Origin: Thermoanaerobaculia bacterium | Lineage (GTDB): Bacteria > Acidobacteriota > Thermoanaerobaculia > Multivoradales > J023 | DNA length: 64,000 nucleotides | Assembly (NCBI GenBank): GCA_030431255.1 | Contig: JAUIJL010000005.1 | Location: forward strand, 29,313 to 93,312 | Direction of reading: 5' to 3' | In this document: positions 15,290 through 57,733 of the stretch, piece after piece | How the letters are laid out: every line of letters starts with the position of its first letter | How positions within the stretch are numbered: the first letter of the stretch is position 1 | The notes under the pieces: model-generated | The model's database searches: none | Told to the model about the DNA's origin: nothing | Seen by the model: the letters and a program-made list of their open reading frames with translations, nothing else | Position numbers and translations under genes: made by a program

Positions 15290-15325
15290 AGCGCTCGCTT
15301 TCTGGGCTTCTGAAGATTTCGGTCC

Positions 15326-17415: not shown

Positions 17416-19964
17416 CCACTATGCCGATCGATCCCTTCCACGCCGAGAGGTATCTTCCCGCCACGGGCCTTCAGGACTTCGTCCAGGCCCTCGAGGCTTG
17501 GCTCTTGCCGGGTTGGGAAACCAGCCTGCAGATGGAAGATCCGCTGACCCAAACCCTCGAAGAGGTGGCGACCTCCTTGGTCGATCAGCGGGCCAGAGAC
17601 CTCGCGCTGGCCCGTTTGCCGGAGGCGTTCACGGAAGCTCCGTCACCGTGGATGATCGAACGCCTGGGTTTTCACCAATGCCATATCTTTCCGTTGGTTT
17701 CGGGCGAGCGCCCCTTTGGGCGACTGCTGCTCTTCGCGGAAGCCGACACCCGCCGGCTCGGTCGAGATCGTGAGCAACAAATTGAGCAGCTATGCTCCGA
17801 AGCCGCCGCGGATCTCGAGCGAGCCCGAGCCCACCACGAAGACGAAAAATTTTCGGAGCGGCTGCGAAAGATCACAGAGACCGAGCTGGCGATTCGCTTC
17901 TCCGGTGCCGCCTTGCGTCTCTGTGAGTGGCTGCGCGCCACGGTCATCCTCGGCTATCGTGGCAATGAGCTGAAGATCCTCGAAGCCCGGCACGGCAGTC
18001 GTAGACAGGAGCGCTTTCTCTATCGAAAGCTGCCCTTCGAAGGCACCCACCTGGCCAAGCTGGCCGCCGGCATTCAGACCGGCGCTCCGGCCGTGCTGGA
18101 CGCAAGCAGCTTCCGCCGATACGCAGAGGGTGAGGCCCTGGCGCCTTTGGTCAGGATGCTTGAAGACGCTCAAGTGGAGACCCTGCCCTTGGAGTCCGCC
18201 GGCCGCTTGGTAGGCTCGGCGGTGCTCTTCCACGGACGTGCCCCGACGGGCGCGGAACGGGCCGCCATCGGACGGCTGTCGGACTCCCTGGCATTTTCTT
18301 TGGATCGCATCCGACCAGAGCGCCGTCGCGCTTCGGGATTGCTCTATCTCCAGGGCTTGCTCCGCTCCTCCCGCGGCGGTGCGTTGGTCGACGTGCTCAG
18401 GACCGTCGTCGAAGAGATCATCACCTTTTTAGGGGCGGACGCGGGCATCCTCGCCCTGGTCGATACGGAGACCGGCACGCTCCTGCTCTCCGAGCACGCG
18501 GGATACGGCCACGACGCCCAGCTGCCCAAATCCATCCCTTTCCACCAACAAAAGAGCAGCTCGATTCTGGCCCACGTCTTCCGCACCGGAGAGCCGTACG
18601 CGGCCCCGGATATTCGAGCCTCCTCCATCTACTTGGCCGCCGACCCGTCGATTCGCTCGGAAATTGCCGTGCCCCTGAGGTTGCACGGCGAGACCGTGGG
18701 TGTGGCCATGGCCTCGAGCCGCCTCCCCGACACTTTCCACACCGACGACAGCGCTAGATTCCAGCTGCTGGCGGATCAAATCGCCGTCGCCATCGACGAT
18801 GCGCGGTTGTTGGATGATCTCCGGGCGCAGCGCCAAGAGGAGGCGATCCAGCGCCAACATCGGCATTTCGGTTTTCACCCCTCGGTGCACGCCGAGGATG
18901 TGGAGTATCACTTCGGCAACCTCGTGGGTGAGCCGTCCGGGCCCATGGGCCGGGTTTACCGCACCATCGAACGGGTCGCCGGACGCGAGCAGGACATCGT
19001 GCTCATTCTGGGCGAAACCGGCAGCGGCAAGGAGATGATCTCCCACGCCATCCACAACGCGTCACCGCGCCGCAGCCGCTCCCTGGTGGCGACCAATTTC
19101 GCGGCCTTGGGGGGCGACCCGAATCTCATCCAAAGCGAGCTCTTCGGCCATGAAAAAGGCAGCTTCACCGGTGCGGTCCGCCGACGGAAGGGCTGTTTTG
19201 AGAAGGCCCACGAATCGTCCCTCCTGATCGACGAGCTGGGGGACATCACACCCGCTGTGCAGGTCAAATTGCTCCGGGTCTTGGGACGAAGCTCCAAGCG
19301 GGAATTTCAACGGCTCGGTGGTGAGCAAGAGCTTTCCTGCGATGTGAGGGTCTTGGCGGCGACCAACAAGGACCTGCGAGCTGAGATGGCCGCCGGCCGT
19401 TTTCGGGAAGATCTCTACTATCGCCTGAGCGCCCTGGTGGTCCGGATTCCGCCCTTGAGGGACCGCCCCGGCGATATCCCCTTGTTGGTCCGGCATTTCA
19501 CGCCGCGGCTGACCAACAATCTACCCCTTCGGATCGCCAAAGGAGTGGACGAGGAGCTGGCCGCCTACGACTTCCCGGGCAACATCCGCCAGCTGGAGAG
19601 CGTGCTTCTGCGCGCCATCGTGATGTTCGGCAATCCCGACGAGCTGACCAGGGAAGACGTTCGCCACGCTCTACAAATCGAGGAAGAGGCCTCTGGAGAG
19701 CTCCCGGGATCCGCCACGCCGACCCTTATCTGCCCGGACCCACCTCCACCGGATTGGTTTTGGCAGGAAGTCTACGAGCCCTGGAAAGAGCGACGGCTCA
19801 GCCGGGAAGCGGTCGAAGGCCTATTACGTCGGCAACTCGCCGGCCAACAGGGCTTTTATTCTCGGGTCGCGACCCGATTGGGCGTCGCCAAAGTCGACTA
19901 CCAGCGCTTCATCGACTTCCTCAAACATTCGGGCCTCAAAGTCGACCACCGACCATTTCGGTGA
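17412..19964 (+). CDS. Sigma-54-dependent transcriptional activator with N-terminal tandem GAF-like sensor domains (no receiver domain)
   Basis: AAA+ sigma-54 interaction domain with the GAFTGA-equivalent loop (ELFGHEKGSFTGA), Walker A ILGETGSGKE and arginine finger region. Start overlaps the asnB stop (ATGA). Confidence 0.85.
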   Translation: MTTMPIDPFHAERYLPATGLQDFVQALEAWLLPGWETSLQMEDPLTQTLEEVATSLVDQRARDLALARLPEAFTEAPSPWMIERLGFHQCHIFPLVSGERPFGRLLLFAEADTRRLGRDREQQIEQLCSEAAADLERARAHHEDEKFSERLRKITETELAIRFSGAALRLCEWLRATVILGYRGNELKILEARHGSRRQERFLYRKLPFEGTHLAKLAAGIQTGAPAVLDASSFRRYAEGEALAPLVRMLEDAQVETLPLESAGRLVGSAVLFHGRAPTGAERAAIGRLSDSLAFSLDRIRPERRRASGLLYLQGLLRSSRGGALVDVLRTVVEEIITFLGADAGILALVDTETGTLLLSEHAGYGHDAQLPKSIPFHQQKSSSILAHVFRTGEPYAAPDIRASSIYLAADPSIRSEIAVPLRLHGETVGVAMASSRLPDTFHTDDSARFQLLADQIAVAIDDARLLDDLRAQRQEEAIQRQHRHFGFHPSVHAEDVEYHFGNLVGEPSGPMGRVYRTIERVAGREQDIVLILGETGSGKEMISHAIHNASPRRSRSLVATNFAALGGDPNLIQSELFGHEKGSFTGAVRRRKGCFEKAHESSLLIDELGDITPAVQVKLLRVLGRSSKREFQRLGGEQELSCDVRVLAATNKDLRAEMAAGRFREDLYYRLSALVVRIPPLRDRPGDIPLLVRHFTPRLTNNLPLRIAKGVDEELAAYDFPGNIRQLESVLLRAIVMFGNPDELTREDVRHALQIEEEASGELPGSATPTLICPDPPPPDWFWQEVYEPWKERRLSREAVEGLLRRQLAGQQGFYSRVATRLGVAKVDYQRFIDFLKHSGLKVDHRPFR

Positions 19965-20022
19965 TCTCGCACCCTGGCCGGCCTCCGAGTGGGCGAATAC
20001 AAGATTCGCGATCTCGACCAGC

Positions 20023-20125
20023 AGGGGCGATCCTTGTGATCGCCCTTGCCGAACCCGTAGGGGCGATCCTTGTGATCGCCCTTGCCGAACCCGTAGGGGC
20101 GATCCTTGTGATCGCCCTTGCCTCT
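20023..20125. repeat. Three tandem 36-bp units (aggggcgatccttgtgatcgcccttgccgaacccgt). Each contains a perfect 8-bp-stem hairpin (gggcgatc-cttgt-gatcgccc). They lie between convergent genes and are probably stacked bidirectional terminators (a REP-like element).
   Basis: Repeats and inverted repeats read directly; the third unit is truncated. Confidence 0.85.
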
Positions 20126-20798
20126 AAGGCCACTCGACGCGGCGGGAGTTGAACCAGGCGTCCAGACAACGTACCTTGCCGCCGGCTACGGACCATTCGT
20201 GGGGCTCGTGAAAGTGGCCGAGCGAGAGGGAGTCGTACCCTTCAGCCAGGCGTCGCTCCGCATACTTTCGAATCGGCTCCTCGGGGATCCGGCGCCGATG
20301 TTTGAAGTTGGTCTTGGCCAGCTTCTCTTCCGTGGAACGGACCAGCTTCTGGGCGAGACCGGAAGGCAGCCCCAAGATCAACAAGCGGATGGGGGCGCTT
20401 TTGGAAAGCCATCGCCAAAACAGATATTGGCGATCCCGGTCGTTTAGGCCGTCACCGTGCACACATAGGTGCCGACGTCCGTCGATCTCGAAGGAGACTT
20501 CCAAAGCGATTTGGTCGAAGGCGTCGGCATAGGGGCTGCCGATGAGAAAGAAATCCCGATTGCCTTCCACGTAGTCCACTCGAACTCCCTGCTCCCGCAG
20601 GCGCCGCAGCTCGGGCACGACCTTGCGAACCTCTGGGGTCTCGAACTTTCGGCTTCCCACCCAGACGTGGAAGATGTCGCCCAGCAGAATCAGGTGCTTG
20701 CAGCCTTGCCCCGGGAGAGCCCTGATCTGCTCGATGAATTGGTCGCCATCTCCCCCGGGACCGCCGAGGTGGGAATCGGCGATGATCGCCACACTCAA
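20124..20798 (-). CDS. lpxH: UDP-2,3-diacylglucosamine diphosphatase-like (LpxH family) calcineurin-type metallophosphoesterase
   Basis: Colinear with E. coli LpxH motifs: IADSHL, LGDIFHVWVG, EGNRDFFLIG, CVHGDGLNDRDRQYLFWR, LGHFHEP. Confidence 0.7.
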   Translation of the reverse strand: MSVAIIADSHLGGPGGDGDQFIEQIRALPGQGCKHLILLGDIFHVWVGSRKFETPEVRKVVPELRRLREQGVRVDYVEGNRDFFLIGSPYADAFDQIALEVSFEIDGRRHLCVHGDGLNDRDRQYLFWRWLSKSAPIRLLILGLPSGLAQKLVRSTEEKLAKTNFKHRRRIPEEPIRKYAERRLAEGYDSLSLGHFHEPHEWSVAGGKVRCLDAWFNSRRVEWP

Positions 20799-41660: not shown

Positions 41661-42818
41661 TTGAGGGCCGGCATTGAGAGCACCCACCGACCCAGCTCCC
41701 GTCGCTCCGTGAGAATCGCCCACCTCATCCACGGCCTCGGGCTCGGCGGCGCCCAGCAGGTGATCAAATTCATCGTGCAAGAGCGCGGAGCCGAGGACTT
41801 CGAGCACTTGGTGTATTCCTGTCACGGCGGTGTTTTCCAGGAGCAAATCGAAGAGGTCGGGGGCAAGGTCAGGATCCTTCCGCGGCGGATTCCCAAATTA
41901 GATCCCTTCTGGGTCCGCGGCATGGCCAAGGCCATGGTCGACGACCGGGTCGACATCGTGCACGGGCATCTCTTTGGTGACAGCTTGCACGGCTATCTGG
42001 CCGCCAAACGGTCTCAACGGCTGCCCATGGTCTTGACCCTGCACAACTCCACGGACGCGCGCACCGGTTTGCAGCTGCGGGGTTATCGCTGGCTGCTGAA
42101 TGGAGACACGGTGCCGGTGGCCTGCGCGGAATTCGTGCGCACCAGCTTTGTGGACGCCATGGGCTCCGCTGCCCGGAACGTGCGTACGATTTCCAACGGC
42201 ATAGCCTTCGACGAGCAAGGTCCCCGGGCCGAGCGCTCCGAGCTTCCCGAGCTTGGGCTCCGTCCGGACGCCGTCATTTTCGCCACCATCGGGCGCTTGG
42301 AGGAGCAAAAGGCCTACCCCGTGCTCTTCCAAGCCCTTCGCGAGCTGATCGACTCATCCCACGCGGACTTCCAGGTCGTGATGTTCGGCGACGGATCCCT
42401 GCGCCGAGATCTCGAGCAAATGCGCCTGGATCTGGGCCTGGAGGATCACGTCCAGATGGCCGGATTCCGCAAAGACATCACCCGCTGGCTGCCGGCCGTG
42501 GACGCGGTGGTCTTCAGCTCGATTTTCGAAGGGTTGCCGATCGCCCTGCTGGAAGCCATGGCCACCCGACGGGCGGTGGTGGCGACCCGAGTGGGTGGCA
42601 TGCCCGGCGCCCTGAAATCCGATCGCGACGCCTTGTTGGTGCCGTCGCGGGATCCCCGGGCCTTGGCCGAAGCCATGGGTCGAGTCATCGACCAGCCGGA
42701 TCTGCGCCGGCGATTGGGGGAGTCGGCCCGGTCTCGATTCGAGGCGGAATTCACCGCCGAAACCATGACCCGACGTTACGAAGACCTTTATCGGGAGGTC
42801 ATGGACCGGCGTCATTGA
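41661..42818 (+). CDS. Glycosyltransferase family 4 (GT-B, retaining)
   Basis: N-terminal GLGGAQQ motif; C-terminal EGLPIALLEAMA...VVAT motif. Confidence 0.85.
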   Translation: MRAGIESTHRPSSRRSVRIAHLIHGLGLGGAQQVIKFIVQERGAEDFEHLVYSCHGGVFQEQIEEVGGKVRILPRRIPKLDPFWVRGMAKAMVDDRVDIVHGHLFGDSLHGYLAAKRSQRLPMVLTLHNSTDARTGLQLRGYRWLLNGDTVPVACAEFVRTSFVDAMGSAARNVRTISNGIAFDEQGPRAERSELPELGLRPDAVIFATIGRLEEQKAYPVLFQALRELIDSSHADFQVVMFGDGSLRRDLEQMRLDLGLEDHVQMAGFRKDITRWLPAVDAVVFSSIFEGLPIALLEAMATRRAVVATRVGGMPGALKSDRDALLVPSRDPRALAEAMGRVIDQPDLRRRLGESARSRFEAEFTAETMTRRYEDLYREVMDRRH

Positions 42819-42837
42819 CGCTCCCGGCCCGAAGCCC

Positions 42838-44064
42838 ATGCACATCGCCTACCTCCACTACCTCTACGGCCGAGACACCGCGTTGCACCACGTGCGGCAA
42901 TTCTCGGAGGCGGCCCAGGCGCTGGGGCATCGGATCGACGTGCACGCCATGAACCTGGCTCCCCCACCGACTTCCGACGGGGCGTCGGGCCCGCCCCCAA
43001 GCCTCAAGCTACGCCTGCGCCGACAGCTCAAGAAACGCTTTTCTCGCTATCTGCACGACCCTAAGGAATTCCTCTGGAATTGGCGCTACATCCGTAAAGA
43101 AAAAGCCTTGTTGGCCCAAGATCCACCGGAGGCCCTTTTGGTGCGCAGCCAAGGGCTCGGCATCTCCTGTGTGCCCGTGGCGCGTCACTTCGACATCCCC
43201 TTGGTGCTCGAGATCAACGCCCCCATGAGCGAGGTCTTGGAATACCTCGACCAATACCGCCACATGGTGCGCCTGCGGAAATGGGCCGGCACCTATAAAT
43301 TGCGTCGGGCCCAAGGGCTGGTAGTGGTCTCCCAAGCTCTGAAGGATTATTACGTCGGCACCTATGGCCTCGACCCCGAGCATGTGACCGTGGCCCACAA
43401 CGGCGCCGACCTCGAAATCTTCCATCCCGGGGTCGAGCCCGACCCGAAATTTCCCCACGACCCCGAGCGACCGCGCATCGGTTATGTCGGTTCGTTTCAG
43501 AAATGGCATGCCCTGGACCTCATGGGCTCCATGATCGCCGACGTCGCCGAGCAGCGTCCCCACACGCGTTTTTTGATGGTCGGCTCCGGGGCCGGCGTGG
43601 AAGACATCCGCGCCGCGACCCCGGCCCTGGGCGAGGATCGGCTGGTCTTCACCGGCCGGGTGGAGCATGCCCGTGTGCCCGGCTTGGTCGCCGCCCTGGA
43701 CATCGGCATCTTGGCGGAAGCCGCCGATTATCAATGCCCGCTCAAGGTCATCGAATGGATGGCCGCCGGCATTGCCGTGGTCGCCCCCGACCACGGGCCC
43801 TTGCGGGAGCTGATCGAGCACGACGTGCATGGGGTCCTCTTCAAAGCCGGAGACACCGAGGCCCTCGCCCGCGCCGTCATCGAGCTGGTGGACGATCCCG
43901 AGCGGCGGCGACGGCTCGGGGCGGCGGCGGCGGAAAGGGCCCACCGATCCATGTCCTGGCAAGACAACGCGCGCACGGTCGTCGGTGCTTGCCGGGCGGC
44001 GGCGGAACGGCTGAGATCCGGGACGTCCCCCAGGGTTTCATCGCCATCCGAGGGGAGCGCCTAA
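42838..44064 (+). CDS. Glycosyltransferase family 4
   Basis: C-terminal GT1/4 motif (IEWMAAGIAVVAPDHGPLRELIE). Confidence 0.8.
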   Translation: MHIAYLHYLYGRDTALHHVRQFSEAAQALGHRIDVHAMNLAPPPTSDGASGPPPSLKLRLRRQLKKRFSRYLHDPKEFLWNWRYIRKEKALLAQDPPEALLVRSQGLGISCVPVARHFDIPLVLEINAPMSEVLEYLDQYRHMVRLRKWAGTYKLRRAQGLVVVSQALKDYYVGTYGLDPEHVTVAHNGADLEIFHPGVEPDPKFPHDPERPRIGYVGSFQKWHALDLMGSMIADVAEQRPHTRFLMVGSGAGVEDIRAATPALGEDRLVFTGRVEHARVPGLVAALDIGILAEAADYQCPLKVIEWMAAGIAVVAPDHGPLRELIEHDVHGVLFKAGDTEALARAVIELVDDPERRRRLGAAAAERAHRSMSWQDNARTVVGACRAAAERLRSGTSPRVSSPSEGSA

Positions 44065-44067
44065 GCC

Positions 44068-45117
44068 GTGAAGACCCGTCCCCTGCGCCGTGCGCTGTTG
44101 CTGACCCTCAGCGCCCTCTTTCACGGCTCCGGTGCGGCCGCTCGGCAACGCCGGCGGCGGCGTTCCAAGGGCGACTTTCGGATCTACATCCTCGAGTATC
44201 ACGGCATCAGCGCGGATCATCGAGAGTGGGAAGGCACCATCTCCCAACAGCGTTTTCGACGCCACCTCCGTTGGCTGAAACAGCACTTCTCATTCACCAC
44301 CGTCGCAGGCGCCGCTCGGCTCTTGGCCTCCGGCGAGCTCGATCGGGATTGGTGTGTGATCACCTTCGACGACGGCTATTTGAATAATTTTGAAAACGCT
44401 TGGCCGGTGCTGCGCGAGCTCGACCTACCCGCCACCATCTACCTCACCTCAAGTTTTCTCGACGGTCGAGAGCTGTGGTTCGACGTCGCCCGAAGGGCTT
44501 TGACCACCTGCCTTGAGCCAGGGGCGGCGGACGCCACCCCGCCCTGGGTCGCCGAGCGCTTGGCGGAGAGCTTGGGTGCTTGGCCCCCGACGCTCGAGCT
44601 GGAAAGCGCCATGCGCTTGTTGAAAAGCAAAAGCGCCGACGAGCGCATGGAGACGGTGCGCCAGCTTCAGGCCGCCGGCCTCGACCTGCCGGCCGCCGCC
44701 GCGCCCATGTCCTGGGATCAGGCCCGGGAGCTCCAACAAGCCGGCATCGAGCTCGGTGCCCACACCGTCGAGCATCCGATTCTCTCCAAGCTCGATCGAC
44801 AGTGTCAGGAAGCCGAGATCCGCGGCTCCATCGAGCGGCTGACCGAGGAGCTGGGGCGGCGACCCACGACCTTCGCCATGCCCAACGGCTCCCAAGCCGA
44901 CTACAACGCCGACACCTTGGAGGTCTTGGCGTCCCTCGGCATCGAGGCCGCCTGCACCACCCGTCGGGGCTCCTGCTCGCCGGGAAGCAACCCTTTGGAG
45001 CTGCCCCGCCTCGGCGTCGGCAGTGATACCGTCAGCCTGCTCAGTGCCCGCATCGCCGGCCTCTTCGACGAGCAAATCCGTCGCCGGCTCAGCCGTTTGT
45101 CCTTTTCCCGCGCGTGA
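44068..45117 (+). CDS. Polysaccharide deacetylase (CE4, NodB homology domain)
   Basis: NodB motif 1 (TFDDGY); NodB domain present. GTG start. Confidence 0.8.
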   Translation: MKTRPLRRALLLTLSALFHGSGAAARQRRRRRSKGDFRIYILEYHGISADHREWEGTISQQRFRRHLRWLKQHFSFTTVAGAARLLASGELDRDWCVITFDDGYLNNFENAWPVLRELDLPATIYLTSSFLDGRELWFDVARRALTTCLEPGAADATPPWVAERLAESLGAWPPTLELESAMRLLKSKSADERMETVRQLQAAGLDLPAAAAPMSWDQARELQQAGIELGAHTVEHPILSKLDRQCQEAEIRGSIERLTEELGRRPTTFAMPNGSQADYNADTLEVLASLGIEAACTTRRGSCSPGSNPLELPRLGVGSDTVSLLSARIAGLFDEQIRRRLSRLSFSRA

Positions 45118-45143
45118 TCGTGATCTAGGAGCTCCGACCCTCC

Positions 45144-46580
45144 ATGACCGACCTCTACACCCGTGTTTTCGAGCACACCCTGTGGCCGATGTCGAATATC
45201 GTCAACGGCACCACCATCCATCAAAAGCTCGATTGGTTGCTCGGCCAGGAGCACGTGCCCCGCGACGAAATTCGCCGTCGGCAGGAGTCCTCGGCGGCCA
45301 AGGTCGTGGAGATGACCCGCAAGCGCAGCGATTTCTATCGCGAGCTATGGCAGCGCAAAGACGGCCCGAGGTCCGACTTCCCCATGCTCGACGGCCTGCC
45401 GGTGGTGACCAAGAACCACTTCGCCGAAGCGCAGGGGGCCTTCCCACTGCCCAGCCGGGGGCGCCTTATTTCCTGCGTGACCTCCGGCTCCACCGGTCGG
45501 CCCATGACGTTCCATCGCTCCGTCGAGCAGGAAAGCTGGTTCTGGGCCCTGCGTTTTCGCATTTGGCGGTGGGCCGGCTACCGCCCCGGGGATAAATACC
45601 TGACTATTAACCTCAATCCCCGAAAGGGTTGGAAGAAGAAGCTCCAAGATCGCCTCTTCCGCTGCTCCTATCTGACCTTCAACGCCGACAATCAGGACAG
45701 CGCGCGCATCGTCGACGAGCTCCAAAGACGTGGCATCGAGCACATCAACGGCTTCTCTTCGTCGCTCTTCGTGCTCGGCCAATATATGCTCAAAAACGGG
45801 CTCAAGGCCCCTTCGGTGCGGGGCATCACCGCCACTGGCGACAGCCTCTATCCCGCCTATCGGGAAACCATCGAAAAAGCCTTCGGTCGACCGGTGCTCG
45901 ACTATTACGGCGCCGGCGGCGAGGGAGTCCACCTCGCCAGCCAAACCTACGAGTCCTTGGCCGACGGCGGACGTTTTCTCTTGCACCCGGAGAACGCCTT
46001 AGTGGAGCTGCTCGACAGAGACGGACCCGTCGCTCCCGGCAAGTTGGGGCGGATCGTCGTCACCCAATTCCACAACGAGGCCATGCCGCTGATCCGCTAC
46101 GAGCTCGGGGACGTCGCCGAGGCCGCCGACCCGAACTGGACCTGCCCGAGCGGTCGCACCCTGCCGATGATGGGCAAGGTCGAAGGCCGTGTGCCCGACT
46201 TGATCGTGGTGCCAGACGGCACTTACCTGGTGCCCCATTTCTTTGTGGTGTTGATGAAGGGCCTGCAGTCGATCTACCGCTACCAAGTGATCCAACGACA
46301 GGAAGGCCGCATGGAGATCCTGCTCCAACCGGAGGGGGATTGCTCCCGCTCCCAAGTGGAGGAGACCATTCGCCGGGAAGTGGGAAAGGCGACCGACGAT
46401 CAAATCCAGGTGTCGTTCAGGTGGGTGGACGACATCCCCCTGACCTCGGGGGGCAAGCGTCGCTTGGTGATCTCGGATTTGGCCCGCAAGCTGATCAAAA
46501 AGGACGACGAGAAGGACGCTTACCTGGGCCAGGGTGCTGCCGGCGGCGCTTCGCAAACCCCCGAGGACGACGGCGCGTGA
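45144..46580 (+). CDS. CapK/PaaK/F390-synthetase-like adenylate-forming enzyme
   Basis: AMP-binding core SGSTGRP, PaaK-like fold, C-terminal GGKRR lysine loop. Confidence 0.8.
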   Translation: MTDLYTRVFEHTLWPMSNIVNGTTIHQKLDWLLGQEHVPRDEIRRRQESSAAKVVEMTRKRSDFYRELWQRKDGPRSDFPMLDGLPVVTKNHFAEAQGAFPLPSRGRLISCVTSGSTGRPMTFHRSVEQESWFWALRFRIWRWAGYRPGDKYLTINLNPRKGWKKKLQDRLFRCSYLTFNADNQDSARIVDELQRRGIEHINGFSSSLFVLGQYMLKNGLKAPSVRGITATGDSLYPAYRETIEKAFGRPVLDYYGAGGEGVHLASQTYESLADGGRFLLHPENALVELLDRDGPVAPGKLGRIVVTQFHNEAMPLIRYELGDVAEAADPNWTCPSGRTLPMMGKVEGRVPDLIVVPDGTYLVPHFFVVLMKGLQSIYRYQVIQRQEGRMEILLQPEGDCSRSQVEETIRREVGKATDDQIQVSFRWVDDIPLTSGGKRRLVISDLARKLIKKDDEKDAYLGQGAAGGASQTPEDDGA

Positions 46581-47803
46581 AGCTGAGATTGCTTTTCGTC
46601 ATCACCACCTCCGATTTCGGCGGCAGTGAGAGCTTTCTCTATCGTTTGGTCAGCCGCATGGACCCGGAGCGATTCGACATCGAAGTGTGCTCCCTGTGCC
46701 CTGTGGGCCGCACCGCCGAGCAGATCCGCGAGCTCGGCATCGTCGTCACCTCCCTGAACATGCACCGCCGGGCCAAACCCGCGCAAATGCTCACCGCCAC
46801 GTTCCGGCTGGCCCGGCTCTTCCGCAAAAGCTTCGGCGGACGGGGGGCGCATGGTGTTCAGAGCTTGTTGTACCGGGCCAATGTGCTGGCGGCCGCCGCC
46901 CGTCGGTTGACCCGCTTGGCCCCTGGATCGGCTCCGTTCTTGGTGACCGGTCAGCGCAGCTTGATCCCCACGGGTCGCAGTCTCGACTTTCGAGCCCAAC
47001 AGCTGACCCGCGATTGGGCCGACCGGGTGGTCGCCGTCTCCAAGGCGGTAAAGCAAGAGCTGCATCAAACCGAATCCATCGCCGACGAAAAAGTCGTGGT
47101 GATTCAAAACGGCATCGACCTCGAGCACTTCAGCCCGCCGGCGCCGGGGGAGCGATCCGCCGCCCGTGCCGCCTGGGGCCCAGCTTCCGAGTACCCAGCT
47201 TCCGACGACTCTGCTTCCGACAACCCTGCCTCCGGGAATCCCGCCTCCGAAGACGCCTTCGTCATCGGCGCCGTGGGTCGCTTTCATGGTCCCAAAGGCC
47301 TCGACGTCTTGATCCGCGCCTTCGCCAAAGCCCGTCAGACCCGCGAGCATATGTGGTTGGTCCTGGCCGGAGACGGCCCCGACGATGCCGCATTGCGGGC
47401 TTTGGTCGATTCCCTGGGACTGCAAGACGCCGTGCGATTCTTGGGTTTTCAAAAAGACCCCCGCCCCCTCTACCCCGGCTTCGATCTCTACGTGCTGCCG
47501 TCCTTGAAGGAAGGCTCCCCCAACGCCCTGCTCGAGGCCATGGGCCGGGGCTGCGCCTGCGTGGCGTCCAACGTCGGCGGCGTGCCGGAAGCGATTATCG
47601 ACGGCGAATCCGGCTGCTTGGTTCCCCCTTCAGATCCGGACGCCCTCGCCCGGGTGTTGCTCGAGCTGGCCGACGATCCGGATCGCCGGCGACGTCTCGC
47701 CGACGCCGCCCGAGAGCGGGTGGAGAGCCACTTCGATCTCGAGCAAATGATCCGCGCCCATGAGGAGCTGTACTTGAGCCTGGGTGCGGACAGCGGGGCC
47801 TAG
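46577..47803 (+). CDS. Glycosyltransferase family 4 with an internal low-complexity insertion (PAS[DE] x5)
   Basis: KLRLLFVITTSDFGGSE N-terminal motif; EGSPNALLEAMGRGCACVAS C-terminal motif. GTG start overlapping the upstream stop. Insertion ASEYPASDDSASDNPASGNPASEDA at about 47175-47250. Confidence 0.8.
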   Translation: MKLRLLFVITTSDFGGSESFLYRLVSRMDPERFDIEVCSLCPVGRTAEQIRELGIVVTSLNMHRRAKPAQMLTATFRLARLFRKSFGGRGAHGVQSLLYRANVLAAAARRLTRLAPGSAPFLVTGQRSLIPTGRSLDFRAQQLTRDWADRVVAVSKAVKQELHQTESIADEKVVVIQNGIDLEHFSPPAPGERSAARAAWGPASEYPASDDSASDNPASGNPASEDAFVIGAVGRFHGPKGLDVLIRAFAKARQTREHMWLVLAGDGPDDAALRALVDSLGLQDAVRFLGFQKDPRPLYPGFDLYVLPSLKEGSPNALLEAMGRGCACVASNVGGVPEAIIDGESGCLVPPSDPDALARVLLELADDPDRRRRLADAARERVESHFDLEQMIRAHEELYLSLGADSGA

Positions 47804-47914
47804 GCTCCCCTCACCGCGCCACTTCTCACCCAAGAATCACTTCTCTCCCAAAAATCGAGGAGATAAGATCGGGCGTCCCATGGATTTGACTCGCCTCATC
47901 GAAGGGATTTCCCC

Positions 47915-50068
47915 GTGACCGCTTCCCGCCAGACGGCTATTTTGGGCGCTTGCTTCGGCCTCTTCTTGGTGTTACTACCCTTAGGCCTCGAAAAACCCGG
48001 GCTGCCGATCCAAATTCGCGCCGATGAGCCGACCTATTTGGCCATGGCCGCGAGCATCGCTTTCGACGGCGACCTGCGGTGCGAGGCCCAGGACGTCGAC
48101 CGGGTTTTCGGTCAATTCCCCTACAGCCGTCCCCCGACTTTTCATCTTCAGAGCACGGACGGATGGTCGTCCCCACCGTTCTTCGACCGAGAGCCCATCT
48201 ACGCCTGGGTCGCCGCCATACCCGTCCGTTTCTTCGGGGCCAACGGCATGGTGGCCCTCAATGCTCTTTGCTTCCTCGGCCTTTTGGCGCTCACCGGCCA
48301 CCGCCGACGAAAAGACGGCAGCTCATGGGGGCCCGGGCACCTTTTCGCATTTGTCTTCTTGGGGCTCAGCGCCGCCTTCGTCCAAGTCTTCTGGTTGGGC
48401 TCGGCCCTATTCCACGCTTTGCTGGTGGTCGCCGCCCTAAGGCTGTCGGAGGCCGCGAAAGAGCCTCACGCCTCGACACCCGTATCCCAGAGCTTGGGCT
48501 CGGGCGCCCTGCTCGGCGGCGCGGTTTTTTCCCTACCCTGGCTGGCCTTGCTCGCTCCGGCCTGTTGGGTCCGACGCCGGGCGGCGCCCTGGGTGATCGG
48601 AGCCGCCCTGGGTTGGATCTTGGCATTCGGAGCCGGCTGGATACTCGGTGCGCCGGGTCCATTCACAGAAACGGAAACCCGCAGCTTTACGGTCGCTTCT
48701 CCCTATGAGGCTCCTTGGCTCGACGAAGATCTCGGACCCGTGGAGCCCCGATCGGTGCTCGGCGAACGACGAGCCCAGCTAGCGGCAGAAACGGTCACAG
48801 ACTTGATTTACTCCCTGATCGAGCAGCGATCGGGATTCCTGGCCTATTTCCCGGCCGGGCTGGTGCTCTTGATCCTGCTGATCGTGTACCGCCGCCGAGG
48901 TCTGGCGGGTTTCGGCTCGGATCGCGTTTGGCTGGCCGCCGGCATCGGAGCGACAATCCTGATCCAGCCCTGGGTCCGCTCTTCTGAAGTCGGCGGCGAA
49001 GTCTTCGGCAATCCGGCCCTGGTGGTGATCGCGCCGGCGCTGCTCTTCCTTTTCCGCCGCCCCCCAACCCAAGCGGCGACCCTCGCGGCCGTAGCCCTCG
49101 GGGTCTTGGTCCTGGGCCCGGCCTTGGTCTCATGCCTGGGTCCGGCGGTCGCCTACGCCGGTTTGCAAAGCCACACCCGAGCGGCGGTGTTGTCCCGCTT
49201 GCCCCTGGATCTCAGCTTTGTCGCCACCGAAGGGGACTATCGATCCTTGCCGGCCGGCGGTCCCGAGGAGCTCGGTCTTCAGCTGTGGGCTCCCTCCAAC
49301 CTCACCGAGCTGCGGGGGGACGAGGTCTGGTCGCTGGGCAACGCCAAGGTGCATCTCTTCTTGACCGCCGACCAACCCTTGGACGACGTCATTTTCCAAG
49401 TGCGTAATTTGGCGTCCTTCAACCGGGTCCGTGTTCGATTCGCCGGCGAGCGGCAAACGCTCCACTTCCAGGAGGTTCCGGACACCGGAAGCGCGACCCG
49501 TTTGAGCTTTGAGCGAGCCGGGCAGCAACGCCTTCAGGGAGAGCGAGAGATCTGGGTTTATCCGCTCACTGTCGACACCAGCAAGGGCAAGAAACCCTTC
49601 TGGAACGGCAACTCCAGCCAGAATTTCTACCTCGGCGCCGCCATCGCCTATTTGGGCTCGGAATCGTTCCTCGATCTGCCGGTTTACGGAGCGAGCTTCA
49701 GCGCCTGCGAAGCCCCTTCGCCCGTGGAAGCCGACTCGGAATTTCTCGCGCTGGCCAAGGTCACCAACACCAGCGAGATCCCGTGGACCGTGGGGGGCGC
49801 CGTGGAGGTGCGTCTCGGATATCGCTGGCTGCGGTCGGACGGCAGCATCGTCTTTGAAGGGGATCGCACGGATTTGAACGCCACCGTGCCCCCCGGGCAG
49901 GAAATCACCACTTGGATGACCGCCAAGAGCCCGCCTCAGCCGGGCACCTACACCTTTGAGCTCGACCCGATCTTCGAAAACGTGGCCTGGTTCTCCAGCC
50001 GAGGGGTGGCCACCTGCAGACGGTCCGTCGACGTCAAAGCCCCTGCCCGCGAGCCGTCGGCTCCCTGA
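47915..50068 (+). CDS. Large integral membrane protein, GT-C-fold glycosyltransferase/polymerase candidate, with a roughly 300-aa C-terminal extracytoplasmic beta-rich domain
   Basis: More than 10 TM helices. DEPTY (DE-x-x-Y) motif in the first loop. The C-terminal 300 aa are hydrophilic. Confidence 0.55.
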   Translation: MTASRQTAILGACFGLFLVLLPLGLEKPGLPIQIRADEPTYLAMAASIAFDGDLRCEAQDVDRVFGQFPYSRPPTFHLQSTDGWSSPPFFDREPIYAWVAAIPVRFFGANGMVALNALCFLGLLALTGHRRRKDGSSWGPGHLFAFVFLGLSAAFVQVFWLGSALFHALLVVAALRLSEAAKEPHASTPVSQSLGSGALLGGAVFSLPWLALLAPACWVRRRAAPWVIGAALGWILAFGAGWILGAPGPFTETETRSFTVASPYEAPWLDEDLGPVEPRSVLGERRAQLAAETVTDLIYSLIEQRSGFLAYFPAGLVLLILLIVYRRRGLAGFGSDRVWLAAGIGATILIQPWVRSSEVGGEVFGNPALVVIAPALLFLFRRPPTQAATLAAVALGVLVLGPALVSCLGPAVAYAGLQSHTRAAVLSRLPLDLSFVATEGDYRSLPAGGPEELGLQLWAPSNLTELRGDEVWSLGNAKVHLFLTADQPLDDVIFQVRNLASFNRVRVRFAGERQTLHFQEVPDTGSATRLSFERAGQQRLQGEREIWVYPLTVDTSKGKKPFWNGNSSQNFYLGAAIAYLGSESFLDLPVYGASFSACEAPSPVEADSEFLALAKVTNTSEIPWTVGGAVEVRLGYRWLRSDGSIVFEGDRTDLNATVPPGQEITTWMTAKSPPQPGTYTFELDPIFENVAWFSSRGVATCRRSVDVKAPAREPSAP

Positions 50069-50175
50069 CTGAAGATCTGAGCGATCGCTCTGGATCGAGC
50101 TGAACACCGCCCCGGAAGCACACTCTGCCTGTGTAATAATCCGCCATCTCGCTGAAAGGGGCGGGTCCATTTCAT

Positions 50176-52274
50176 ATGCCCACGGAAAAACCACATCTCG
50201 ACACTCAGCCGGCAAAGGCGGCCGAAAATCCGCCGTGGGTGGTGTTGGTGGGCTTGCCTCAGGCGACGGTGGAAGACCTGCGAGCCACAGCCGACGCATC
50301 CGAGGCACCTCCATTCCGAATCCAATCGTTCACGGCCCATCAGGCGGAGGCCCTTCCCAGCTCGGACCTTCCCAGCTCGGACCCTCCTGGTAGCGGACCG
50401 AGGGTGCTGGTGCTCGGGCCCGAGCTATCGGCCGAAGAGGGCCGAGAGCTGATCCAACGGACCTCGGACCTGGATCCGTGGCGGCGAGCGCACAATATTG
50501 TGCTCGGGGCGGGCGCCGGTATCCGTCACTTTCACGATCTGGTGGTCGAGGATCGAGCCTATTTCCTGGCCCGGGATTTTCCGAGCTCGGTGGAGACCCT
50601 GGCCTTGATCCGCTCCGCGCTCAGCCACGGATCGCTCTACGGCGACCCGGAGAAGCCCCGCACCTTGGAGCGGCTCCTGGACCATCGATCCAAGAACAAA
50701 CGCGTTCAAGCCGACTCTCCGGCTGAAATCGTGCTCAATGAGGTCGTCGGCCAAAAGAATCTTGCCGGTCTGCTCGGTCGCACCACCCGCATGTTGGAGC
50801 GTCTGGTCAGCGCCGATCGGACCGATTGCTTCCTTTACGAGCCCGCGTCGGACACCCTGCGCTCGTTCCAAGCTCCCAGCCACGAGCAGGACAGCTTGGC
50901 CGCAGGCACCATCGCCTTTGCGATGCGCACCGGCTCGATCCAGATCCTAGAACGGACCTCGGATTCTCCTTTCTTCGACCCAGATTTGGATGGGTTTCGA
51001 GCCGATGGTCACGGGCAGGCAGACGGAAAAGCCCGCCTCCTGGTGGTCCCGCTGACGGTCCGTGGCCCACGCTCCATCGGCATCGAAACGACCGCCCCCC
51101 GAGGGTACCCGGCCTTTGCTGTCTGGGTGGCCTGGAGATCCGCTCACCGAGAGCCCTTCGATCCGGACGACGCGCGCAACGTCCAACGCACCACAGGCCC
51201 CCTCATCCCTTTGATCGCGGACCTCCTGTTGCAGGAGGAGCAGCAGAATCTGCTGCGACAATCCCAAGCCGGTGCCGACGCCCCCGGTGGTCGTGGATCC
51301 TCCAGCCAACGCATCTCGTTCCGAGCGGAGGCCCTTCAGCACTATTACGAAGGAGCCCCGGACCACGGCGAGATCTTGCGCATCAGCCCGGAGTGGACCC
51401 GCTACGCCTATCCTCTGCTGCTGCTGCTCTTCGTCAGCGCCATCCTCTTCAGCATCTTCGCCAAAGTGCACGAATACGCCGAGGGCGTGGGCATCGTGCG
51501 CCTCCAGGGACGTGTCGACGTCAACGCTCAGGTGGGCGGTACGGTCAGCCGAGTCCTGGCGCAGCCCGGCCAGGCGGTCGAGAAGGGTCGGCTTCTGGTC
51601 AAGCTTTACGACGTGCAAGAAGAGGCCGAGCTGGAACGCGTTCAGCGGGAATTCGAGCTCGGGCTGTTGGATCGGCTGCGCCGGCCGGCGGATCCGGTCA
51701 CTGCCCGTACTCTCGGTGCCCTTCGGGCGCAGCGCCAGCTGGCCCTATCGCGGCTGGAAGAACGTTCCGTTCGCGCTCCGGTGGCGGGCATCGCCAGTGA
51801 TATTCGGGTGCAGCCCGGGCAGCTGCTCGCTCCCGGTGAGGTGATTTTGTCGCTGCATCGACAGGACGAGAGCCAACGGCTCCTGGGCATTCTTCCCGGC
51901 CGCTACCGACCCCAGATCCAAGTGGGAATGCCCTTGCGATTCGAGCCCGAAGGCTTCCGCTACGCCTACCAGCACTTGGTCGTGGACGCGGTCAGTGACG
52001 AGGTCTTCGGACCGGCCGAGGCTCGGCGCATCCTCGGCCCCGGCATCGGTGACGCGGTGCCGATCTCGGGCCCGGTGGTGTTGATCGAGGCTCGTCTGCC
52101 CATGGGTTATTTCGAAAGTGAGGGCACCGTCTACTCGTACCACGACGGCAGCCTCGGCCGATTTGAGCTCAAGGTGCGGTCGGAGCGCATTCTGCTCACC
52201 CTGGTCCCCGGCTTGAAGGCCCTATTCGCTGAACGGGAAGCTCCAGCAAAGACGCCACCAGAAAGCGCGTCACC

Positions 52275-52278
<4 letters not shown>
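50176..52278 (+). CDS. HlyD-family type I secretion membrane fusion protein (bacteriocin/NHLM-type) with an unusual roughly 400-aa N-terminal cytoplasmic extension (GAF-like fold suspected)
   Basis: A single TM (YAYPLLLLLFVSAILFSIF) at about aa 410, followed by a HlyD-like biotin-lipoyl/coiled-coil/beta-barrel region (VGIVRLQGRVDVNAQVGGTVSRVLAQPGQAVEKGRLLVKLYDVQEE...). Confidence 0.7.
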
Positions 52279-54571
<2,293 letters not shown>

Positions 54572-54575
<4 letters not shown>

Positions 54576-55660
54576 AGATCTCCGAGCGCCTCAAGGAATC
54601 GACGATCCTGCGTTCCGGCTTGCTGGTCGCCACGGGCGTCGCGGCCGGAGCCGTGTTGATGCTCGGCCTGCGAGCCGGACCGGACTCGGGACCGACCACC
54701 GCCCTGACCACGGACGAGACGTCGAGCGCGAGCGCGTCCCAGGCGGCTCGATCTCCGGCTCCGGCTCCGGCTCAAACCCTAAATGCGAACGCGGAGCCGG
54801 GCTGTTTCGTCGGCGCCTTGGTGCCCCGGGAAGAGGCAGATGTAGCCGCTGAGATCGAAGGTATTCTCGAAGGCTTGAACGTCAGAGTGGGAGATCGCGT
54901 GCAAGTCGGCGATCCGCTGGCGACCCTCGATACGCGCGCTTTGAGCCATCAATTGGCCATCGAGGAGGCGAATCTCAAAAGCGCCGAGGCGGAGCGGAAA
55001 AAGCAATCGATCGAGGTGCAGCGCGCGGCCCAAGAAGAGCAGCGCCGACTTGCCCTCTCGGGTTTGGTGTCCCGCGAGGAAGGTGAGGCGGCGGCCTTTC
55101 GAGCGAGCAGCGCCAAAGCGAGCTTGGAAGCGGCCGAGGCCCGGTCGAATCAGGTCCAAGCGCGAATCGACGAGATCAGCGACATCCTCAGCCGGTCGGT
55201 GCTCCGGGCGCCGTTCACGGGCCTGATCTCCCGGCGGTACCTGGATCCCGGCTCGCGGACGCTTGTCGGCACACCGGTGGTGCGGCTGGTTCGGCTCGAC
55301 GATCTCATGGTGCGATTCGCGGTGCCGTTGGAAGTGGCCGAAGACCTCGAACCCGGCGATTCGATCCGCGCGGAGCTGGTCAACGAGCGCTCGGCCTGGT
55401 CGGGCGTCGTCGAGCAAATCGCTCCGGAAATCGATCCGGCCGCCCTCTTGGTCTTCGTCGAGGCCCGGCTGGAAACCCCGAATCCATCTGCTGAATCGGG
55501 CGCCGACTCCCTGGTCTTCGGCACCGAAGCCCGGGTCAGTCTGACCGACCCCGGGCAAGATCCGCCGAAATGTTTGACCACGGAGCCGAAGTCGGCAGCG
55601 GCCGTAGGGGCGGGGCTTGCCCCCACCCGCTCCAGCGAGTTGAAGCTTCAAGATCGCTGA
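54572..55660 (+). CDS. Second membrane fusion protein (periplasmic adaptor, HlyD/AcrA-like), translationally coupled to the ABC gene
   Basis: N-terminal TM, biotin-lipoyl-like ATLDTRAL...RAPFTGLIS motif pair, coiled-coil. Confidence 0.75.
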
Positions 55661-55712
55661 ATCGCGGCCTGGGCGCCGTCAGAGTTGGAGCTGGATCCGA
55701 TCTCCGATCACT

Positions 55713-57449
55713 CTAATCCGAAGCAGAGCCCCAGGTTTCTTCCGCCGTCCGACACCCTTGACCCACGCAGTCCTGAAGCTCCTGGACCTTGGACCGCATC
55801 ATGGCGAGGAAAACCGTGTAGCTCGGGTGGTTGAGCAGGTCGACGACTTGGTCGGGATCGGTTTTCAGATCGAAGAAGAATTCCTCGCTATAACCGCCCG
55901 GCCAGATCGGGTCCTGATACGAGATGTAGGTGAGATTGCTGATCATGGCCTCGGTCATGGGGTCGGTGCGCACCGCGTGGTAGTCCGGGAAGACCCACCA
56001 CCGCTGAGGCCCGACGGGATTCTGTCCCCTGGGATGCTCCGCTTCGAGCAGCAAGTTCTTGCGCCAGGGCCCCGGGCTCGGCTCCCCCTGAAGATACGGA
56101 CGCAGGGAGCGACCGTCGATGGCGTAAGACGAGGCGGCCCAGGGCAATCCAGCGTAGTCCAAAAGGGTCGGAGCCAGATCGACATTGCCCACCAGAAGAT
56201 CGGTGCGCGCCTGGTAGCGGGGCCCCGGTGGTCGCACTACCAACGGCACCCGAACCGATTCGTCGTAGGCCAATCCCTTATTGCCCAAACGATGCTCACC
56301 GAGGAAATAACCGTTGTCGGACGTGAAGACCAACACGGAGTTGCTCAATCGCCCGGCGGCGGCCAGGGCGTCGACCACCCGACCGACCATCACGTCGATC
56401 GACAGCATGGATTCCAGCCGCTCGGAGTGCAATCGACGGAGCTGCTGTAGGTTGTCGCCGCAGCTCAGGGCCTCCCACTTGTCTTGCACCGCCTGAGGGG
56501 TGGCCGCGAAGCTGTCGAAGGAGGCTTTGCCCAGCCCCGGCAAATCGAAGCCGGGAGCCGGATCGCCACCTTTTTGACGCAGGCAACCCTGAGGGAAACC
56601 GTCGCAACCGTATTCCGCGTAATCCGAAGCCGGATAGCCGTCGATGATGCCGTCGTTGTTGAAATCTCCCCGATCCGGGCTCAAATAACCCGTGAAATTG
56701 GGGTGCGTGTTGCTGTTGCAGCCGTCGTGATTCCAATCGGTGAGCCATTCCACGTGGGGGGCGGTCGGCGCCAAATACAAGAAGAGGGGGTCGGCGGCGG
56801 GAACCGTGTTGATCACCAGCTCCGCCTGCTCGCCGACGGCGCGGGTTTGATAGGTCGTGGGCAGCTCCACGCTGCCGTCGGGCCGCACAAACCGATAGCT
56901 GCCCGGCACCAAGGCATGAGAAGGGATGGCGCGCCAATAGCTCCATCCCGCGGGCGCGGGCGTACCCACGCCGTAACCGTTCTTATATTTGCCCACCAAG
57001 GCGGTGTAATAGCCGGCTGCTTGCAACCAAGTCCCCAGGGTCGGCCGATCGGCGCCGCCCGGGTGAAATGCGGCGTAACCGCCGTTGGTGCCGGTGACGT
57101 TTTGTACCCCATGGTTGTGCGCGTATTGGCCGGTGAGAAACGTCGCACGGGAGGGGCAGCACAACGAGTTCGACACAAAGGCCTGCGCCACATCGGTGCC
57201 GACGTCCAGAAAATGCTCTTGGATCCTCGGCAACTTACCGCCGTCGAGCAATTGGTGGAACGACCCCAGATCGAGATCGTCGACCATGATCACGACAAAA
57301 TTGGGCGGCTGCTTGCCGGCGGTTTCCCATTCGGGGCCGTCGGCGCCGACGGCCGACGCCGCGAGCCAGATGGTTGCGAAACCAACCAAGAGAATAAAGT
57401 GAAAGCCGAGAGGCCGCAGGCGTTGCTGAAGGTGGAAATTGCGAAACAT
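55713..57449 (-). CDS. Sulfatase (formylglycine-dependent arylsulfatase/sulfamidase family)
   Basis: Signal peptide. NFVVIMVDDLD. Sulfatase signature CCPSRATFLTGQYAHNHG (C-x-P-x-R). Confidence 0.9.
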   Translation of the reverse strand: MFRNFHLQQRLRPLGFHFILLVGFATIWLAASAVGADGPEWETAGKQPPNFVVIMVDDLDLGSFHQLLDGGKLPRIQEHFLDVGTDVAQAFVSNSLCCPSRATFLTGQYAHNHGVQNVTGTNGGYAAFHPGGADRPTLGTWLQAAGYYTALVGKYKNGYGVGTPAPAGWSYWRAIPSHALVPGSYRFVRPDGSVELPTTYQTRAVGEQAELVINTVPAADPLFLYLAPTAPHVEWLTDWNHDGCNSNTHPNFTGYLSPDRGDFNNDGIIDGYPASDYAEYGCDGFPQGCLRQKGGDPAPGFDLPGLGKASFDSFAATPQAVQDKWEALSCGDNLQQLRRLHSERLESMLSIDVMVGRVVDALAAAGRLSNSVLVFTSDNGYFLGEHRLGNKGLAYDESVRVPLVVRPPGPRYQARTDLLVGNVDLAPTLLDYAGLPWAASSYAIDGRSLRPYLQGEPSPGPWRKNLLLEAEHPRGQNPVGPQRWWVFPDYHAVRTDPMTEAMISNLTYISYQDPIWPGGYSEEFFFDLKTDPDQVVDLLNHPSYTVFLAMMRSKVQELQDCVGQGCRTAEETWGSASD

Positions 57450-57679
57450 GGTGTCCTCGATGGCATGGGCTGGATGGGCTGAGGCACCGCTCGATGGCAG
57501 CGGTGAGGCCGACGTCCGCCGTCGGCGTCCAACTAGAAGTGCATCTCCCGTGCCGGCGTGCCTCGGCTCCACAAAAACACCATTGATCAGAGGTTTGCGG
57601 ACGGATCGCAGCCGCCTACCCCGCTTCGCTGAATCCGCCGTTGACAACGCTGTCTACGATCGAGACACCTCAAACGCCA

Positions 57680-57710
57680 AAGGCCCGCCGAAGCGGACCT
57701 TTGGACGGAC
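57680..57710 (-). terminator. Imperfect GC-rich hairpin (ccaaaggcccgc-cgaa-gcggacctttgg) downstream of the TonB-receptor gene; possible terminator
   Basis: Inverted repeat with one mismatch, weak T-tract. Confidence 0.35.
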
Positions 57711-57733
57711 AATAGAACGAGACCTAAGCTAAA

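Follow-up and report, generated by a model that had tools for sequence, protein, structure and literature searches.

In a 64,000-nucleotide stretch of a Thermoanaerobaculia genome (contig JAUIJL010000005.1 of assembly GCA_030431255.1, positions 29,313 to 93,312; hereafter the window) we identified a gene for a membrane-fusion protein (MFP) of the HlyD/CvaA type that carries two additional domains on the cytoplasmic side of its membrane anchor. A degenerate receiver (REC-like) domain is followed by a GAF domain, a single transmembrane (TM) helix and a periplasmic adaptor, all in one polypeptide. The gene directly precedes that of a peptidase-containing ABC transporter (PCAT), and a class II lanthipeptide gene pair lies close by. 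From this architecture and neighbourhood we propose, with a probability of roughly 0.6, that the cytoplasmic part acts as a tethered regulatory module which would gate lanthipeptide processing and export. The bare combination of GAF and HlyD domains has been seen before; in the present case it accompanies a class II lanthipeptide cluster. The protein's family, which is uncharacterised and moderately widespread, is dedicated to PCATs and comprises both adaptors with a sensor module and sensor-anchor proteins that stand alone.

PCATs and type I secretion systems are usually described as being controlled through transcription and the supply of substrate, and the cytoplasmic tail of their adaptors is short. 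To our knowledge post-translational gating of the exporter would be a layer of control for which neither PCATs nor type I secretion systems offer a described example.

Integrity of the adaptor gene

The original prediction, made from the DNA alone, described a HlyD-family protein with about 410 residues ahead of its TM helix. This length was borne out by a Kyte-Doolittle scan, which gave one hydrophobic peak in the whole protein, at residues ~409-432, corresponding to the segment originally quoted, YAYPLLLLLFVSAILFSIF. The open reading frame (ORF; Table 1) begins with ATG and has zero internal stops. The GC content at third codon positions (GC3) lies between 0.70 and 0.82 in each 100-codon block from the first to the last codon, and because it is uniform the N-terminal 400 codons are as coding-like as the C-terminus. 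A word-indexed search of 5.8 billion proteins returned six close homologues, of 646-734 residues and 35-80% identity. As all six are full-length and collinear with the window protein, no missed stop or frameshift need be assumed. An N-terminus reading MPTE is common to the window protein and its nearest homologues, and the identical protein was called on an independent Logan assembly. A codon comparison with the two nearest orthologues placed dN/dS at 0.05-0.06 in the MFP part, 0.09-0.10 in the GAF domain and 0.33 in the REC-like domain, showing that the N-terminal module is under purifying selection.

A full-length AlphaFold2 (AF2) model built with 40 family sequences had a mean predicted local distance difference test score (pLDDT) of 84.2, compared to 60.6 for an earlier, low-confidence model of the N-terminus built with 6 sequences. 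Predicted structures were compared with the PDB using Foldseek. Structure prediction and fold comparison of the first 400 residues had been suggested with the original prediction, and both a receiver and a GAF fold were matched. Even with the 6-sequence model, matches were obtained to GAF domains and receivers as well as to the REC-GAF tandem found in a dual-sensor kinase. The prediction of one sensor-type domain was therefore correct as to the GAF domain, but the 400 residues comprise two domains, a receiver fold incompetent for phosphorylation and the GAF domain.

A receiver fold that has lost its phospho-acceptor

In the AF2 model residues 21-155 adopt a (beta-alpha)5 fold with five strands and five helices. 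A profile built from 27 family sequences of this segment matched the receivers of 3hv2, an HD-domain regulator (E = 4.7e-12), HupR (6.9e-12) and NtrC (4e-5), and the Foldseek TM-scores to receivers were 0.68-0.73. Pfam Response_reg was found at E<=1e-3 in two of 40 members, at 27.3 and 22.2 bits, both short of its gathering cutoff of 30.2. The residue equivalent to the phospho-acceptor Asp57 of CheY is Gly81 in the window protein; across the family this position is glycine in 163 of 166 members and aspartate in only one. The acidic pair of receivers is also absent, with strand beta1 followed by G-L/F/G and not by DD. With glycine at the acceptor position, a phosphorylatable response regulator is excluded. 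The first domain is therefore a pseudo-receiver, homologous to receivers but without their defining phospho-acceptor.

The GAF domain and its exit helix

The N-terminus of the window protein on its own matched the GAF domain of the HD-GYP phosphodiesterase PmGH (4mcw) with E = 0.0031. With a 6-sequence family profile the match to 4mcw, the closest GAF domain by sequence, improved to 6e-13, and the GAF domains of PDE10A (2.5e-6) and CyaB2 (1.3e-5) were also recovered. The stretch first noted as GAF-like (residues ~196-258) falls within this domain, and in the two most distant homologues of the first search round Pfam GAF scores 47-51 bits (cutoff 22.4) where that stretch aligns. Pfam detected GAF_2 in 34 and GAF in 26 of 40 family members (E<=1e-3), and those individually tabulated scored above the cutoff. 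The AF2 secondary structure of residues 183-367 is that of a GAF fold, with pLDDT mostly >90 and an exit helix of 38 residues. Foldseek matched the domain to 4mcw (1.7e-6), 3eea (TM-score 0.63), Lcd1 and phosphodiesterase GAF domains.

Membrane anchor and periplasmic adaptor

The canonical adaptor starts at approximately residue 380 with a juxtamembrane segment of the FRxEAL type. Within this segment Arg383, Pro405 and Trp407 are invariant in 40 sequences and Phe382, Leu401 and Ser404 are kept in at least 90%. The AF2 model has a disordered Gly/Ser-rich stretch at residues 369-381, a short juxtamembrane helix at residues 382-392 and the TM helix at 405-428, so that the only anchor of this MFP is internal, at residue ~410, and not near the N-terminus. 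Pfam identified HlyD_3 (31.9 bits, cutoff 22.2), HlyD_D23 and Biotin_lipoyl (22.1 bits, cutoff 22.1) at residues 447-590, and residues 59-143 of HlyD (8dck_C) align to residues ~409-493 with E = 1.2e-7. The adaptor domains were modelled with pLDDT ~90 and matched MacA (6.8e-15), EmrA, MexA and BesA, with E values from 1e-15 to 1e-11. Assignment to a curated subfamily failed, as the NCBIfam models TIGR01843 for type I secretion HlyD (41.7 vs 208.65 bits) and TIGR03794 for NHLP bacteriocin HlyD (34.3 vs 156.2) aligned over only the TM-proximal ~85 residues (positions 4-90 to residues 408-493, and positions 26-103 to residues 415-491, respectively). By its fold, its anchor and the coupling of its gene to that of a transporter the window protein is a member of the HlyD/MFP superfamily, as had been predicted.

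A family of fused and stand-alone modules

A profile of the N-terminal 400 residues retrieved 23 proteins, nearly all of 630-734 residues, most of which had precomputed GAF and adaptor domains. A HMMER search of 1.84 billion cluster representatives (50% identity) gave 146 matches at E<=1e-30 that cover most of the module. We classified 174 collected proteins with family-derived profiles, and found the architecture REC-like-GAF-MFP in 135 and PilZ-REC-like-GAF-MFP in 21, with a few fragments or other architectures. Conservation of the fusion among orthologues had been named as a check, and the REC-like domain, GAF domain and adaptor share one chain in these 156 of the 174, most of which come from MAGs of Acidobacteriota, Myxococcota and Proteobacteria. 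The genomes of relatives in GTDB are likewise metagenome-assembled genomes (MAGs) of Thermoanaerobaculia/Acidobacteriota, Myxococcales and Proteobacteria, and the continuous frame recurs in independent assemblies from NCBI, ENA, JGI and Logan. Among the loci of the GTDB relatives the three parts share one frame, except in two long-read MAGs with frameshift-like breaks (L020, L023). The architecture was originally called uncommon; it is indeed rare among MFPs, but it forms the sizeable family of 146 cluster representatives described here and a GAF-HlyD combination had been mentioned once before (PMC4452313).

The PilZ domain is found at the N-terminus of members of ~740-770 residues (~21 of the 174 by the family-derived profile), and Pfam PilZ scored 24.5-35.7 bits (cutoff 22.5) in the four members checked (P0039, P0099, P0110 and P0111). 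A Pfam scan of the window protein gave no PilZ domain. As a dedicated second-messenger receptor, added at the N-terminal end in part of the family, PilZ points to a signalling input. Its presence echoes Alg44 and, by analogy, hints at an input from cyclic di-GMP (c-di-GMP).

Twelve cluster representatives of 357-407 residues run from the REC-like domain through the GAF domain and juxtamembrane segment to the TM helix, and end 3-29 residues after it. The three that could be placed on contigs are complete genes. Two of these, on metagenome contigs (L027:2702-3880, 392 residues; L028:241-1464, 407 residues), each have a PCAT gene overlapping them at the downstream end, and the C39 domains of these PCATs are 61% and 51% identical to that of the window PCAT. 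Because the module and its anchor adjoin a PCAT with or without the periplasmic adaptor domain, the partner of the REC-GAF module is probably the PCAT, through its cytoplasmic parts. The split forms retain the TM helix on the REC-GAF protein, and the junction never falls between the cytoplasmic domain and the helix. Splitting into two genes, by an internal stop or in orthologues, had been proposed as evidence against the fusion; the window gene has no internal stop, and proteins lacking the periplasmic domain do exist but do not refute the fusion here.

The export cassette and its lanthipeptide neighbours

The stop codon of the adaptor gene overlaps the start of the PCAT gene (ATGA at 52275), and the PCAT stop overlaps the start of a second adaptor gene in the same way (ATGA). 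The translated PCAT contains the motifs Q..ETDCGAACL and HHFVV and carries the domains of a C39-peptidase ABC exporter, which confirmed the peptide-export context expected from the start. Its best NCBIfam match was NHLM_micro_ABC1 (633 bits, below the cutoff of 853). The NHLP transport trio (TIGR03794/03796/03797) was considered and excluded, as all scores were below the cutoffs and the second ABC gene is absent. Of 22 related loci, nearly all have an orthologue of the PCAT (45-94% identity) immediately 3' of the adaptor, and in many of them the second adaptor is found downstream or divergently upstream. A scan of positions 49900-56000 for sigma-70 promoters and terminators gave no excess over the shuffled expectation.

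Downstream of the cassette by 5 kb, and on the opposite strand, are lanM and lanA. Both products score above their NCBIfam cutoffs, identifying a class II lanthipeptide system in which the synthetase LanM is accompanied by a precursor with a double-glycine leader. LanA is of the mersacidin/lichenicidin family; its leader ends in LSSLTGG and is followed by a core rich in Cys, Ser and Thr. Read from the sequence, hydrophobic residues occupy positions -4, -7, -12 and -15 of the leader, which is the recognition pattern of C39 peptidases. The three-gene cassette occurs together with lanA and lanM in three further loci (L003, L004 and L006) over adaptor identities of 50-80%. The LanA copies there are 84-96% identical and adjoin the same cassette, and in L004 the lan genes directly abut it and have YcaO and dehydrogenase genes as neighbours.

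Proposed function and alternative explanations

In the mechanism we favour, the protein would serve as the HlyD/CvaA-type adaptor of the PCAT export apparatus in this diderm bacterium. The likely cargo would be the class II lanthipeptide encoded by the nearby lanM and lanA, with the GG end of the leader as the putative site of C39 cleavage. The TM helix would hold the REC-like/GAF module at the cytoplasmic face of the exporter, where it could contact the cytoplasmic parts of the PCAT, namely the C39 peptidase, the nucleotide-binding domains or both. Leader cleavage and transport would in this way be made dependent on a cytoplasmic signal, and candidate inputs are a small ligand on the GAF domain or a protein partner on the pseudo-receiver. 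A more specific version, in which the module would bind a nucleotide second messenger or metabolite as its receptor and allosterically switch the C39 protease and/or ATPase of the PCAT on and off, is a possibility that we offer tentatively.

Several observations weigh against a gating role. The non-phosphorylatable receiver weakens the view of the module as a simple ligand sensor, and this domain evolves fast, with N-terminal identities of 35-72% vs 69-92% for the MFP part. The Pfam scan of the window protein returned zero GAF matches and nothing N-terminal of residue 447. In the window clade two positions kept in at least 90% of members are altered (D264S and R266F), turning the family motif DPRYD into SPFFD, and the GAF domain carries variable loop insertions, so that ligand binding may be altered or lost in this clade. 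The flexible linker argues against rigid helical signalling. An outer-membrane factor gene is absent from the cassette, and the sole OEP domain among the scanned ORFs belongs to an unrelated resistance-nodulation-division (RND) locus. The lan genes are separated from the cassette by sulfatase and TonB-dependent receptor genes (55713-59632, minus strand), and around more distant family members there are no lanthipeptide genes, with the PCAT (45-61% identical) still directly 3'. Because of these intervening genes and lan-free relatives the cargo is assigned by proximity only. The sulfatase is also present in L003, and neither it nor the TonB receptor gene intervenes in L004.

The flexible linker would suit the main rival explanation equally well. 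The degenerate receiver and divergent GAF domain may sense nothing and instead provide a platform for cytoplasmic oligomerisation or docking, for example by dimerising around the PCAT or by recruiting LanM or the leader peptide to couple modification with export. The family-wide loss of the phospho-acceptor, the two altered positions in a GAF domain that falls below the Pfam threshold and the flexible tether to the membrane would all fit such a scaffold. The N-terminus also diverges faster than the other genes of the cluster, a pattern that co-evolution with a variable partner would produce. In the haemolysin system the short cytoplasmic N-terminus of HlyD binds the substrate and triggers recruitment of TolC. 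We nevertheless consider a pure scaffold rather unlikely. The ~21 members with an added PilZ domain indicate a signalling input, and the dN/dS of ~0.1 shows that the fold and surface of the GAF domain are tightly maintained. The module also stands beside PCATs of differing neighbourhoods (lanM; radical-SAM and nonribosomal peptide synthetase genes; nothing obvious), and because of this a dock specific for one cargo or enzyme is disfavoured.

It is also conceivable that the cassette handles some other double-glycine peptide, or functions in producer immunity or efflux, and that the module regulates that unrelated function. The distance and opposite orientation of lanA and lanM, the genes lying between, the distant members without lan genes and an upstream synteny with exopolysaccharide genes would be consistent with this. 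We think it improbable given the linkage of lanA and lanM to the cassette in four loci, including the abutting arrangement, the fit of the LanA leader to the C39 pattern and the finding of no further transporter among the lan-proximal window genes examined. Lastly, the fusion could be an artefact in which a cytoplasmic REC-GAF gene and a normal HlyD gene were merged by a lost stop or by a frameshift from sequencing or assembly, as the stand-alone REC-GAF-TM genes and the breaks in L020 and L023 might suggest. Such an event has almost no chance of explaining a frame that is continuous in 156 collinear proteins from independent assemblies, with GC3 and conservation running across the junction, an identical protein in an independent assembly and split forms that keep the TM helix on the REC-GAF side; we regard it as ruled out.

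Should the regulatory reading be correct, and the module gate cleavage or transport, it would constitute a post-translational checkpoint on the release of an antibiotic peptide, with a bearing on self-protection of the producer and on the timing of bacteriocin release. If the receptor version were true, maturation and secretion of bacteriocins and other peptides synthesised on the ribosome and modified post-translationally (RiPPs) in these diderms would be gated at the exporter. Gating of cleavage or transport could also bear on the heterologous production of RiPPs of uncultured Gram-negative phyla, in which yield could be blocked by an exporter that stays silent. The architecture may further offer a structural handle on communication between adaptor and ABC exporter, with six tethered cytoplasmic domains per adaptor hexamer, and gives a clear lead, open to testing, on how peptide export may be controlled after translation.

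Comparison with known systems

The window protein resembles the CvaA/HlyD-type MFPs of CvaAB-TolC (microcin V) and HlyBD-TolC in its single TM anchor, lipoyl/barrel-sandwich domain, alpha-hairpin and beta-barrel, in its FRxEAL-type juxtamembrane segment and in being encoded in an operon, translationally coupled to a C39-bearing ABC exporter. It differs from them by ~380 extra cytoplasmic residues vs the usual few tens, by a short hairpin of two ~23-residue helices and by the second, MacA-like adaptor in its operon. Two distinct MFPs with one inner-membrane transporter are also found in TriABC-OpmH of Pseudomonas aeruginosa. There, however, TriC is an RND pump, and TriA and TriB have no cytoplasmic sensor module, unlike the window adaptor.

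The closest functional precedent is Alg44 of P. aeruginosa (PilZ-TM-MFP-like), which likewise places a cytoplasmic signalling receptor at the N-terminus of a membrane-anchored protein. The PilZ domain of Alg44 controls the output of an export machine post-translationally, its c-di-GMP-binding motif is needed for alginate production, and its periplasmic part has been compared with MFPs (PMC4436075). Alg44 differs in working with the glycosyltransferase Alg8 in polysaccharide secretion and not with an ABC peptide exporter, and it has PilZ only, without REC-like or GAF domains. In architecture the nearest precedent is a brief mention of proteins with GAF, HlyD and Biotin_lipoyl domains in SecA_DEAD/Peptidase_M50 loci of Planctomycetes, Verrucomicrobia and Proteobacteria, for which the authors suggested a sensory or regulatory role (PLoS One 2015, PMC4452313). 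The likeness is at the level of Pfam architecture, with GAF followed by HlyD/biotin_lipoyl and a second HlyD-type protein encoded alongside. An ABC transporter is absent from those loci, and in its place are a SecA_DEAD ATPase and a membrane protein that is Peptidase_M50-like.

For the module itself, the REC-GAF tandem of the dual-sensor histidine kinase (6oap/6oaq/6ob8) has the same domain order and aligned over ~360 columns (Foldseek E ~2e-6). The kinase and PmGH are soluble enzymes that act in signalling and have a receiver that can be phosphorylated, whereas the window protein has glycine at the acceptor position and a membrane adaptor as output. Our literature search for GAF in combination with any of HlyD, MFP or lanthipeptide yielded just the passing mention of 2015, and no study of a GAF- or receiver-bearing adaptor in the context of PCATs or type I secretion systems. 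The phrase 'GAF domain' does not occur in a review on tripartite and type I secretion systems published in Chem Rev in 2021, and Haft 2010 mentions GAF only incidentally.

Features of the window

Table 1. Coordinates of the adaptor gene, its domains and the associated export and lanthipeptide genes in the window
Feature	Position	Strand	Evidence or description
Whole gene: REC-like, GAF, TM and HlyD/MFP adaptor	50176..52278	+	700 aa
Degenerate receiver (CheY-like) domain, aa ~20-155	50233..50640	+	AF2, profile, Foldseek
GAF domain (aa ~183-329) and long C-terminal helix (aa 330-367)	50722..51276	+	Sequence, Foldseek, AF2
Gly/Ser/Pro-rich disordered linker, aa ~368-381	51277..51318	+	pLDDT <50 in both models; variable in length and sequence
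Conserved juxtamembrane segment, aa 381-408 (SFRAEALQHYYEG...LRISPEW)	51316..51399	+	Alignment
Single TM helix, aa ~405-429	51388..51462	+	Hydropathy, AF2
Periplasmic adaptor: barrel-sandwich (lipoyl), short alpha-hairpin (480-502 / 507-529), beta-barrel	51463..52245	+	Pfam, AF2, Foldseek
PCAT / LanT-type ABC exporter, 766 aa	52275..54575	+	Peptidase_C39 107, ABC_membrane 123, ABC_tran 130 bits
Second adaptor, MacA/RND_mfp type, 362 aa	54572..55660	+	TIGR01730 127 vs 94.9 bits; Pfam HlyD_D23, HlyD_3
Lanthipeptide precursor LanA, 70 aa; leader ...VDDEALSSLTGG, core CSYGTFCPTSAICSPCPPKHCY	60702..60914	-	TIGR03898 56.9 vs 23.5 bits
Class II lanthipeptide synthetase LanM	61011..63968	-	TIGR03897 897.5 vs 304 bits; Pfam DUF4135 and LANC_like

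Other observations in the window and related loci

The PCAT starts with a low-complexity Asn-Gly repeat (SNGNGNGNGNGS) ahead of its C39 domain, and the DNA at 52296-52330 (plus strand) is a short tandem repeat. Between the TonB receptor gene and lanA an ORF of 218 residues (59863-60519, minus strand) had no Pfam or NCBIfam match; at the comparable position L003 has a thioredoxin/tetratricopeptide repeat protein instead. In L004, which carries a 50%-identity relative, the region 14130-20773 contains lanA and lanM followed by genes for a GMC oxidoreductase, a nitroreductase-family protein and a YcaO protein. This arrangement is suggestive of a RiPP cluster of hybrid lanthipeptide/azoline type that uses an exporter of the same kind.

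Directly 5' of the adaptor gene, positions 41661-50068 (plus strand) hold an exopolysaccharide-type block with several family 4 (GT4) glycosyltransferases, a polysaccharide deacetylase and a CapK-like acyl-CoA ligase, together with a multi-pass membrane protein of 717 residues that has no family match above threshold. The order of the block is conserved in L003, and the 717-residue gene is also present in L006. A second, unrelated GAF protein is encoded at 17412-19964 (plus strand), after an asparagine synthase-like gene; it has 850 residues and combines GAF with a sigma-54 activator (bacterial enhancer-binding protein). Further upstream, an ORF of 1473 residues (8904-13325, minus strand) contains an AcrB-type RND permease (ACR_tran, residues 9-998) and the OEP domain (two stretches, the best at residues 1285-1463), and is overlapped by an upstream gene for a HlyD-type adaptor (13322-14452, minus strand). 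Fusion of an RND permease and an outer-membrane factor in a single polypeptide, as this ORF would imply, would be unusual.

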